Part shown: positions 19,795 to 20,502 of the stretch, piece by piece
How the letters are laid out: every line of letters begins with the position of its first letter
Numbering within the stretch: the first letter of the stretch is position 1
Source: a virus
Virus record (IMG/VR): IMGVR_UViG_3300045988_175865
Span: 60,001 to 92,000 of that record
DNA: 32,000 bases
Reading direction: 5' to 3' (one strand)
The notes under the pieces: model-generated
What the model was told of the DNA's origin: nothing
Database searches by the model: none
The model's input: only the letters and a program-made list of their open reading frames with translations
Position numbers and translations under genes: made by a program

Positions 19795-20502
19795 TTGCGG
19801 ATATTTAATAGTGCTTACAGCAAACGTCTTTACACACTAATAGTAAGCTCCCCTTTCGGTATATTTGCCACTAATAATTAAATATCCTTAAAAAAGACTA
19901 TAACATTTTCTTATTGGGAGGCCAGGATCTATAATATACCTCCAGTTATCCGAATATATTGCGCAATAGTTGGTCCTTAGAGTTGTATCCCTTCATTCAG
20001 GCCAAGTGAAACATCTTGGGAAATGTGTACTGTTCTATGATCACTCAAACAGTCGCTTATAGTCTTTTGAAAACATAAATTCTATATAAGTAGATAGTCT
20101 ACTAACTTCCACTTATCAGCAGATAAAACTGGTAAATTATTTTATTTGGTAATGAATGTATATTAGTGACTATAAGAGTGGTCAAACTCTTATAGTCTAG
20201 ATATTACTAAAGCGTGTTGTTACACCTAAAGAAGTACTATAAGTATTGCTAGTTATAGTACCGTAAGTCATTAACTTACCTTCATTGTAGGGAATCCAGC
20301 TGCGGCTTTTCAGGTTCTTAACTTGACTTCACTAGCTACTTACTCTTATATTTCAGATTCCTGACTTCGAGTCTAGTCTTTCACCATTATTTAAGTATAC
20401 CTACAGTTTTTATTTGAGGAGTAAACTGTGAAACTTATACCTCACCACATACTGCTACTCATCTACTCATTAAAGATAGCTACCTCCAAGCTCACTACTT
20501 TA

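Follow-up and report, generated by a model that had tools for sequence, protein, structure and literature searches.

Introduction

Non-coding RNAs whose 3' ends are made by tRNA processing include stable RNAs that phage T4 encodes in its tRNA cluster, as well as MALAT1-mascRNA. GOLLD and ROOL, two classes of large ornate RNA, lie near tRNAs in prophages and are possibly co-transcribed with them (PMC5737381). In T4-type phages, promoter/terminator stem-loop cassettes termed PeSLs shuffle genes by homologous exchange between sequences that are otherwise unrelated (PMC4122927; PMC2839356). In the crAss-like phage phi14:2, passages of a preprint describe two long intergenic regions that are transcribed above most genes as long non-coding RNAs (lncRNAs) (bioRxiv 10.1101/2020.03.07.982082). 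Here we analyse a 32,000-nucleotide (nt) stretch of viral DNA (IMG/VR record IMGVR_UViG_3300045988_175865, positions 60,001 to 92,000; "the window"), in which a block devoid of gene-sized open reading frames (ORFs), 19795-20502, runs directly into a tRNA gene with anticodon CAU. We conclude that this gene-free stretch is real and probably makes a folded non-coding RNA.

The block is a composite of three swappable, hairpin-bounded units, split at 20166/20202. An earlier note on this DNA had treated it as a single 708-nt unit, which the comparison with 16 related contigs contradicts: these separate a lineage-specific core, a conserved hairpin (H1) and an independent cassette. On the minus strand the order is a terminator-type hairpin (T), the cassette (20202-20508), H1 (20168-20197), the core (19795-20166) and the tRNA. 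The features are as follows.

20508..20542, minus strand: T, terminator-type hairpin, AUCUCCUC ... GAGGAGAU followed by U5, with a 15-17-nt loop CAAUGACUUGGUAAGAG
20202..20508, minus strand: stem-closed cassette of ~307 nt, in which an 11-bp perfect helix (20202-20212/20498-20508) closes ~285 nt
20168..20197, minus strand: H1, 12-bp stem and 6-nt loop, GACUAUAAGAGU-UUGACC-ACUCUUAUAGUC, then CACUAAUA
20069..20165, minus strand: 5' spacer of the core, with a neutral-like rate and predicted helices that are not maintained
19892..20068, minus strand: central domain of the core, ~175 nt, closing helix AAAAGACUAUAA/UUAUAGUCUUUU (20058-20068 with 19892-19902)
19795..19894, minus strand: 3' module of the core, in which an 11-bp perfect helix (19799-19809/19877-19887) closes a 67-nt interior
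19721..19794, minus strand: tRNA, anticodon CAU (ARAGORN; Rfam tRNA, 70.8 bits)

GOLLD (RF01998) and ROOL (RF03087) have in common with this locus a phage or prophage context, adjacency to tRNA genes (frequent in their case) and the character, probable here, of a large structured non-coding RNA; here the core lies 4 nt from tRNA-Met. They measure ~580-800 nt, whereas the conserved core spans ~370-400 nt, and each adopts one fixed multi-junction fold, in contrast to the independently swappable stem-closed modules seen here. Unlike them, the present locus has a narrow range, one crAss-like lineage of the human gut. No Rfam family matches the block (cmscan at the gathering threshold, at E<=10 on 19600-21200 and at E<=1 on the whole window), and these scans find in it no GOLLD, ROOL, RNase P, 6S or known ribozyme. 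The earlier note had assigned the block to no family, and with GOLLD and ROOL giving no match even at E<=10 that judgement stands. Across the block, the window and three related loci, Rfam returned only tRNAs, a transfer-messenger RNA (tmRNA) and a sub-threshold RAGATH-33-like match outside the block. The locus does not qualify as a ROOL, since cmscan gives no match and the supported structure comprises only four local hairpins and two closing helices. Literature searches yielded no description of these elements.

T and H1 resemble PeSLs in being conserved stem-loops placed at insertion, deletion and replacement junctions, and the stems of T covary and are followed by a T-rich run. PeSLs, however, are present in many copies per genome, scattered over hyperplastic regions, whereas T occurs once in the 32-kb window and H1 once per stretch in 27 viral stretches. 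PeSLs also hold a defined early promoter; at T and H1, a sigma-70-type scan gave no site on the minus strand, although the promoter type of phage or host may differ. The cargo of PeSLs consists of small ORFs, in contrast to the non-coding RNA cargo proposed here. The T4-cluster RNAs and MALAT1-mascRNA share with the locus a non-coding RNA directly upstream of a tRNA or tRNA-like element and a terminal helix at the cleavage site, here of 11 bp and 4 nt away; they have no sequence relationship to the core, for which we infer the processing. The phi14:2 lncRNAs (g004-g005 and g005-g006 junctions) are likewise long, ORF-free, intergenic and crAss-like, and persist through infection (bioRxiv 10.1101/2020.03.07.982082). 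They are known only from expression, and the present locus from structure and conservation; the passages of the preprint that describe them report no structure, conservation or tRNA linkage.

Results

A non-coding block dense in inverted repeats

The longest stop-free minus-strand frames in 19795-20502 run for 43, 34 and 33 codons (48 with TGA as sense), and ORFs opening with ATG, GTG or TTG reach at most 38 amino acids (aa), on the plus strand, the longest on the minus strand having 27 aa. The block had earlier been called ORF-free with a maximum of ~24 codons; the non-coding call stands, but the figure was too low. The limit set at 20502 has also moved, as the ORF-free zone continues to 21135 (19795-21135, 1341 nt). 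It strikes us as scarcely credible that the block is a gene, whether decayed or written in an unusual genetic code. Its slot does hold two ORFs (111 and 107 aa) in the related contigs L001, L006 and L037; yet each frame of the block carries 14-24 stops of all three kinds, and no gene-sized frame opens under reassignment of TGA, TAG or TAA. The neighbouring genes are normal in code 11. A tblastx comparison of the block with all related loci gave no protein-level match beyond same-locus homologues and no similarity to the 111- and 107-aa ORFs, and the substitutions in the block are paired in helices and lack codon periodicity. Pfam and PHROG annotation of the neighbouring and alternative-cargo ORFs was uninformative.

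Counting perfect inverted repeats that are 11 bp or longer and fall within 350 nt, we find three in 19795-20502, against 0.09 expected, and five in 19795-21135, against 0.18 expected (0/300 dinucleotide shuffles for each); the latter is the highest density in the window. The stems listed in the earlier note are all present where it placed them. They comprise 20168-20179/20186-20197 (12 bp, perfect; the stem of H1), 20234-20245/20250-20261 (12 nt, 1 mismatch), GTAAGT/ACTTAC at 20263-20279, and 19799-19809/19877-19887 (11 bp, perfect), which encloses GCTTAC/GTAAGC and stops 4 nt from the tRNA 5' end. The hairpins 20234-20261 and 20263-20279 lie within the cassette.

The sequence ACTATAAG is found in four exact copies within 188 nt (20056, 20169, 20189, 20236) and one imperfect copy, rather than the five copies previously counted. 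We account for these repeats mostly as arms of RNA helices, namely H1, the closing helix of the central domain and a cassette hairpin. A protein-binding palindrome, as once proposed, is therefore not a necessary reading of them, and we prefer RNA because one-sided substitutions keep G-U pairs; for H1 the palindrome retains its place. We rejected ACTATAAG as a genome-wide signal, its copies being concentrated in the block. Pairing of the H1 arms with the closing helix of the central domain was likewise set aside, as the lineage B change, judged by eye, does not preserve it.

Paired substitutions and constraint in the core

Relatives were gathered through a 190-aa neighbour gene, DNA patterns and reference crAss-like genomes, and were then compared by BLAST and alignment. 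They are human-gut metagenome contigs of up to 168 kb. The core, ~370 nt of non-coding sequence, occurs in 16 of these besides the window and always ends 4 nt before tRNA-Met(CAU). It falls into only two lineages, A (98-99% identity to the window) and B (86-89%). Scans with 16-20-mers of IMG/VR and a metagenome collection for distant homologues returned the same phage lineage only, and a GTDB scan for a 20-mer of the 3' module, over 185,579 representative genomes of bacteria and archaea, gave no match. Synteny followed through the 190-aa neighbour gave 9 protein clusters, the distant ones without the core.

Covariation was assessed over 2-3 lineages only, with slid-structure controls and permutation. 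Across ten aligned core sequences, both partners of six base pairs have changed and still pair; these pairs lie in four helices, H1 included. Sliding the structure by 1-3 columns leaves 0-1 such pairs. For a non-circular test, the structure was predicted from the window alone and the 36 lineage-B substitutions were permuted 5000 times. The window-only structure has 5 compensatory pairs, whereas the permutations average 0.6 and never exceed 4 (0/5000). Within the central domain, the hairpins with compensatory changes are 20048-20053/20029-20034, 20015-20025/19994-20006 and 19938-19943/19917-19922, and the paired substitutions are 20051+20031, 20050+20032, 20019+20002 and 19942+19918. The H1 stem has three variants with compensatory changes (UAUAAGAG, UACAAGAG and UAUAGGAG). 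In the cassette of L060, compensatory pairs occur at 20257+20238 and, at long range, at 20449+20301, with four wobble-compatible single changes against one broken pair. The supported structure thus comprises H1 and three central-domain hairpins, and what speaks for the closing helices is solely their perfection. A global fold by minimum free energy (MFE) or RNAalifold was rejected, as it varies between runs and many of its long-range pairs are broken in lineage B; the local helices alone were kept.

The one-sided changes carry a strand signal. Changes of A-U to G-U, G-C to G-U and U-G to U-A keep pairing on the tRNA-sense strand only, and on the plus strand they would give A-C mismatches. The pattern favours RNA of tRNA sense over DNA palindromes. 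The idea of a structured RNA, put forward earlier, has gained from these results: the excess of helices, the covariation and the G-U signal together make a structured RNA on the tRNA strand most likely. The earlier note had let that idea hang on conservation and covariation, and we find the block's core conserved in 16 contigs and compensatory pairs above controls, at modest depth.

Divergence between lineages A and B is uneven along the locus. Third codon positions of two downstream ORFs differ at 16-19%, and the 5' spacer shows 18% divergence with a 13-nt indel. The central domain diverges by 8%, with 8 of its 14 differences falling in compensatory pairs. The 3' module has 1 difference per 100 nt (binomial P ~5e-8) and the tRNA 1 in 74. 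The low-divergence tract, 19654-19912, also spans the tRNA, the spacer behind it and the first 44 nt of the next ORF. The stem-closed part of the 3' module is 89 nt long, and its interior holds a GNRA-type hairpin (CC-GAAA-GG) and an AGCUUAC/GUAAGC stem; the linker to the tRNA is 4 nt, GCAA or UCAA. No second or divergent copy of the 3' module was found in ~288-290 kb of related loci (nhmmer, covariance model), nor did any stem-closed module turn up before the other tRNAs of the window.

These rates bear on the possibility that the core is a purely cis-acting leader, whose hairpins would serve processing, stability, or termination and antitermination of the tRNA and operon, with no stable or trans-acting RNA made. 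We regard this as possible but doubtful. The core does occupy the 5' untranslated position of a unit that runs into the tRNA and on to ORF190, 23 nt further, and H1 precedes ordinary ORFs in other phages; the neutral evolution of the spacer and the weak folding energies suit a leader as well. Such a leader accounts less readily for ~270 nt (central domain and 3' module) that evolve well below the synonymous rate and contain internal hairpins with compensatory changes. Moreover, L001, L006, L020 and L037 keep the tRNA and operon without the core, which is therefore not needed for their expression.

Exchange of units at conserved hairpins

T and H1 lie exactly at the junctions of indels and replacements and flank every cargo swap seen. 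H1 occurs once per stretch in 27 IMG/VR stretches (exact-pattern scan; contigs of 14-178 kb, mostly 68-178 kb), twice only in L039, and also in the reference genomes cr108_1 and cr111_1, whose corresponding gaps are annotated without features. From these occurrences we take H1, a motif conserved among crAss-like phages, to mark the start of a unit and the left-hand junction at which cargo is exchanged. Seven different cargos stand behind it, among them the following.

L001, L006, L037: two ORFs (111 and 107 aa)
L020: ~125 nt and tRNA-Met
L039, copy 1: ~125 nt and a terminator
L019: ~150 nt and a 56-aa ORF
L040, L044, L057, L060: various ORFs
crAss-like contigs of ~100 kb: a ~140-nt unit from H1 to a terminator (T')

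In the L001/L006 swap the right-hand junction falls within the tRNA gene, at window position 19766. T is 97% identical to that of cr108_1. Over ~27 variants its stems covary around a nearly constant loop, CAAUGACUUGGUAAGAG, and the sequence that comes next is T-rich, most variants having a run of at least 5 T. The window has one copy of T, with up to 3 mismatches allowed, and cr108_1 has two. The last U of its U-run is also the first base of the closing helix of the cassette. The cassette is found at 94-99% identity in L034, L039, L043, L044, L057 and L060, ahead of other cargos, and most core-bearing relatives lack it, with spacers of 66 or ~100 nt instead. L039 carries cassette and core as two distinct units, with a second terminator hairpin and a second H1 between them; for this reason the arrangement in the window looks like a recombinant between H1 copies. 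The contig L038 (ERZ501732 NODE_2388, coverage ~1.2) has a 13-nt deletion that removes the tRNA anticodon loop, probably an assembly error, and was not used as evidence.

The independent gain and loss of modules makes it very unlikely, in our estimation, that one giant RNA of 0.75-1.34 kb runs from ~21135 (or from T) to the tRNA as a crAss-like counterpart of GOLLD or ROOL. Such a transcript would suit a zone that is ORF-free over all 1341 nt, the upstream half of which folds better than shuffled sequences (z = -3.3), and a U-run of T that is continuous with the cassette closing helix. The tRNA adjacency is like that of GOLLD and ROOL (PMC5737381), and a conserved, apparently unpaired segment contains the 8-nt self-complementary sequence UUGCGCAA. 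T, however, shows every part of an intrinsic terminator and has stems that covary, L039 places another T between cassette and core, and Rfam detects no likeness to GOLLD or ROOL.

We also weighed modules that act as DNA, that is, recombination cassettes or elements like miniature inverted-repeat transposable elements (MITEs), whose palindromes would function in DNA and whose near-identity would reflect recent horizontal spread. Perfect 11-12-bp inverted repeats bound the modules, and two pairs of 11 bp (20202-20212/20498-20508 and 20836-20846/21054-21064) have the form of MITE terminal inverted repeats. Modules are present or absent among close relatives, they are 94-99% identical in phages whose neighbouring proteins share only 56-58%, and the low-divergence tract reaches beyond the RNA. 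We nevertheless judge this account unlikely. Each module is present in one copy per stretch examined, with no multi-copy spread (nhmmer, BLAST and the covariance model found a single copy per locus and no dispersed copies), and no target-site duplication or direct repeat is visible at the cassette ends. The compensatory changes lie in short internal hairpins rather than at module ends, and G-U compatibility of the one-sided changes holds on one strand only, a bias that DNA palindromes would not need. Junctions fall at conserved sequence (H1, tRNA), as for homologous recombination and not transposition.

Several further elements accompany H1 and T in the relatives. The ~140-nt unit consists of H1, then GCUUCAGAGGCUUAAGU..., then a T-type terminator, and is highly conserved, unannotated intergenic DNA. 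It lies at 2330-2474 (minus strand) of L027 (cr108_1) and also in L041-L045, L050, L053, L055, L058 and L059; it has no Rfam match, and by its layout it looks like a small RNA gene. The two copies of the ~125-nt element behind H1 (L020 3905-4030, L039 1758-1880) differ, with GACCGCUGGCC...GGUC in one and AGCGCUGGC...GCU in the other; these apparently compensatory differences suggest that it may be another structured cargo. A small hairpin between T and H1 has a conserved loop, UUUCUY, and stems that covary (CUACAC/GUGUAG versus CUAUGC/GCAUAG); it occurs at L027 2476-2500 (minus strand), L019 ~6400-6420 and L020 ~3845-3865. L019 also has a tRNA-like element at ~6505-6600, whose 7-bp stem (AGCUAGG/CCUAGCU) is of acceptor type and whose hairpin (GAAGG-UGCGAAU-CCUUC) resembles a T-arm; neither ARAGORN nor Rfam calls this element.

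Upstream units and other features of the window

Beyond T, the zone continues with one further row.

20543..21135, minus strand: rest of the ORF-free zone, a ~235-nt unit ending in T and an optional module, 20845-21129

The ~235-nt unit (20506-20740, minus strand) begins with GGCUUUCAGGCUUAAGU, ends in T and recurs at 94-99% identity in many crAss-like contigs. In antisense, at 20541-20705 on the plus strand, runs a hydrophobic ORF of 51-54 aa that is open in 8/9 variants; the region may encode a small protein or a structured RNA, or hold a type I toxin-like pair. The optional module is absent from L002, L004 and L006 and shares part of its length with a domain that the 11-bp inverted repeat 20836-20846/21054-21064 closes. 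At 20946-21055 (minus strand), a RAGATH-33-like element gives a sub-threshold full-length match (E = 0.007, whole window). It resembles RAGATH-33 (RF03102) in its CAUAGAAAGG and GGAAAAC...AAUGAUAC motifs and in aligning over the full length, but scores 31.7 bits (35.1 bits for L020 3267-3376) against a gathering threshold of 120.4. By this alignment it is possibly a distant relative of RAGATH-33 and not a member.

The window is AT-rich phage DNA (~31% GC) with 12 tRNA genes and a tmRNA, and its genes lie on the minus strand up to ~26 kb. Its proteins are nearest those of crAss-like phages (SPFH protein, 48% identity to crAss001; dehydrogenase, 45% to cr108_1). The CAU tRNA, which could be an elongator Met or an Ile2-lysidine type, stands behind the core in all contigs long enough to reach it, and its 5' end (19794) sets the 3' boundary of the non-coding core. 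Downstream, the operon includes ORF190, which starts 23 nt past the tRNA, and the ParB-like ORF238. The phage-encoded tmRNA is at 10715-11138 (minus strand; Rfam 50 bits), with the tag peptide AKNTVRKMANKVMPLATPMRAQVAFAA according to ARAGORN. Two Rfam tRNA matches just over threshold, 23537-23665 (minus strand; 32.8 bits, span 129 nt) and 23801-23905 (minus strand; 34.7 bits, span 105 nt), are not called by ARAGORN; they may represent degenerate tRNAs, or tRNA-like genes interrupted by long insertions that are possibly introns. Further ORF-free gaps occur at 15782-16696, 24150-24904 and 25190-25976. Region 16001-16684 is 94.6% identical to the lineage-B contig L010, versus ~89% for its flanking genes. 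At 25240-25450, long AT-rich palindromes lie beside a GC-skew switch (~26 kb) and two replication-initiator-like genes, and from this setting the region is likely a replication origin.

Discussion

We favour, at about an even chance, a non-coding transcript of modular build: RNase P would cut its 3' end at the tRNA, and recombination at conserved hairpins would shuffle its modules. Core and tRNA would share one minus-strand transcript, and the RNase P cut at the tRNA 5' end would make the 3' end of an RNA of ~400 nt. Both ends of this RNA would be shielded by helices, H1 on the 5' side and the 11-bp helix on the 3' side, and the resulting stable phage non-coding RNA would probably act in trans during infection. 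T, H1 and the tRNA gene would be the sites of homologous recombination through which phages swap units, in parallel with the PeSLs of T4-type phages (PMC4122927). The core is read as accessory non-coding RNA cargo because it combines a 5' hairpin, a multi-hairpin body and a terminal helix and is optional where the tRNA and operon are kept.

Several observations weigh against this transcript. A sigma-70-type promoter scan recognised no promoter and no excess over shuffles, and T resembles a real terminator, so that read-through or an unseen promoter is needed. Folding-energy z-scores of -1.57 (708 nt), -1.98 (core) and -0.8 to -1.4 (sub-modules) make up a range, -0.8 to -2.0, that is unremarkable and not discriminating. 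Lineage B breaks 10 pairs of the window-only MFE structure, close to the null value of 12.5 (P = 0.19), so that the global fold lacks support and local hairpins alone have it. The diversity of the core is shallow, with two lineages and most compensatory changes on one branch, and the covariation in H1 is equally expected of a symmetric DNA operator. A recent recombination tract could also mimic purifying selection in 19654-19912. Taken with these points, the locus is a candidate new structured RNA of modular, recombination-prone architecture in crAss-like phages, for which the evidence is real but shallow.

A broader reading, which we offer as speculation and rate as unlikely, is that crAss-like phages carry an undescribed non-coding RNA cassette system. 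T and H1 would then be universal start/stop or recombination adaptors, and RNA cargos would be traded like accessory genes. The cargos would include the ~400-nt tRNA-terminated RNA and possibly a GOLLD/ROOL-class RNA of 0.75-1.3 kb, serving for example as counter-defence or host-takeover factors.

crAss-like phages (Crassvirales) dominate the human gut virome and are the most abundant phages there, and to our knowledge their non-coding content is essentially unannotated. If transcribed, the locus described here would add a structured RNA family that matches no described Rfam family, and its predicted product is a discrete RNA of ~400 nt with an RNase P-made 3' end at 19795. It would also mean that phage accessory regions trade RNA cargos besides ORFs, with conserved hairpins and the tRNA gene as the handles. 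For annotation pipelines, kilobases now labelled "intergenic" beside phage tRNAs may be genes.

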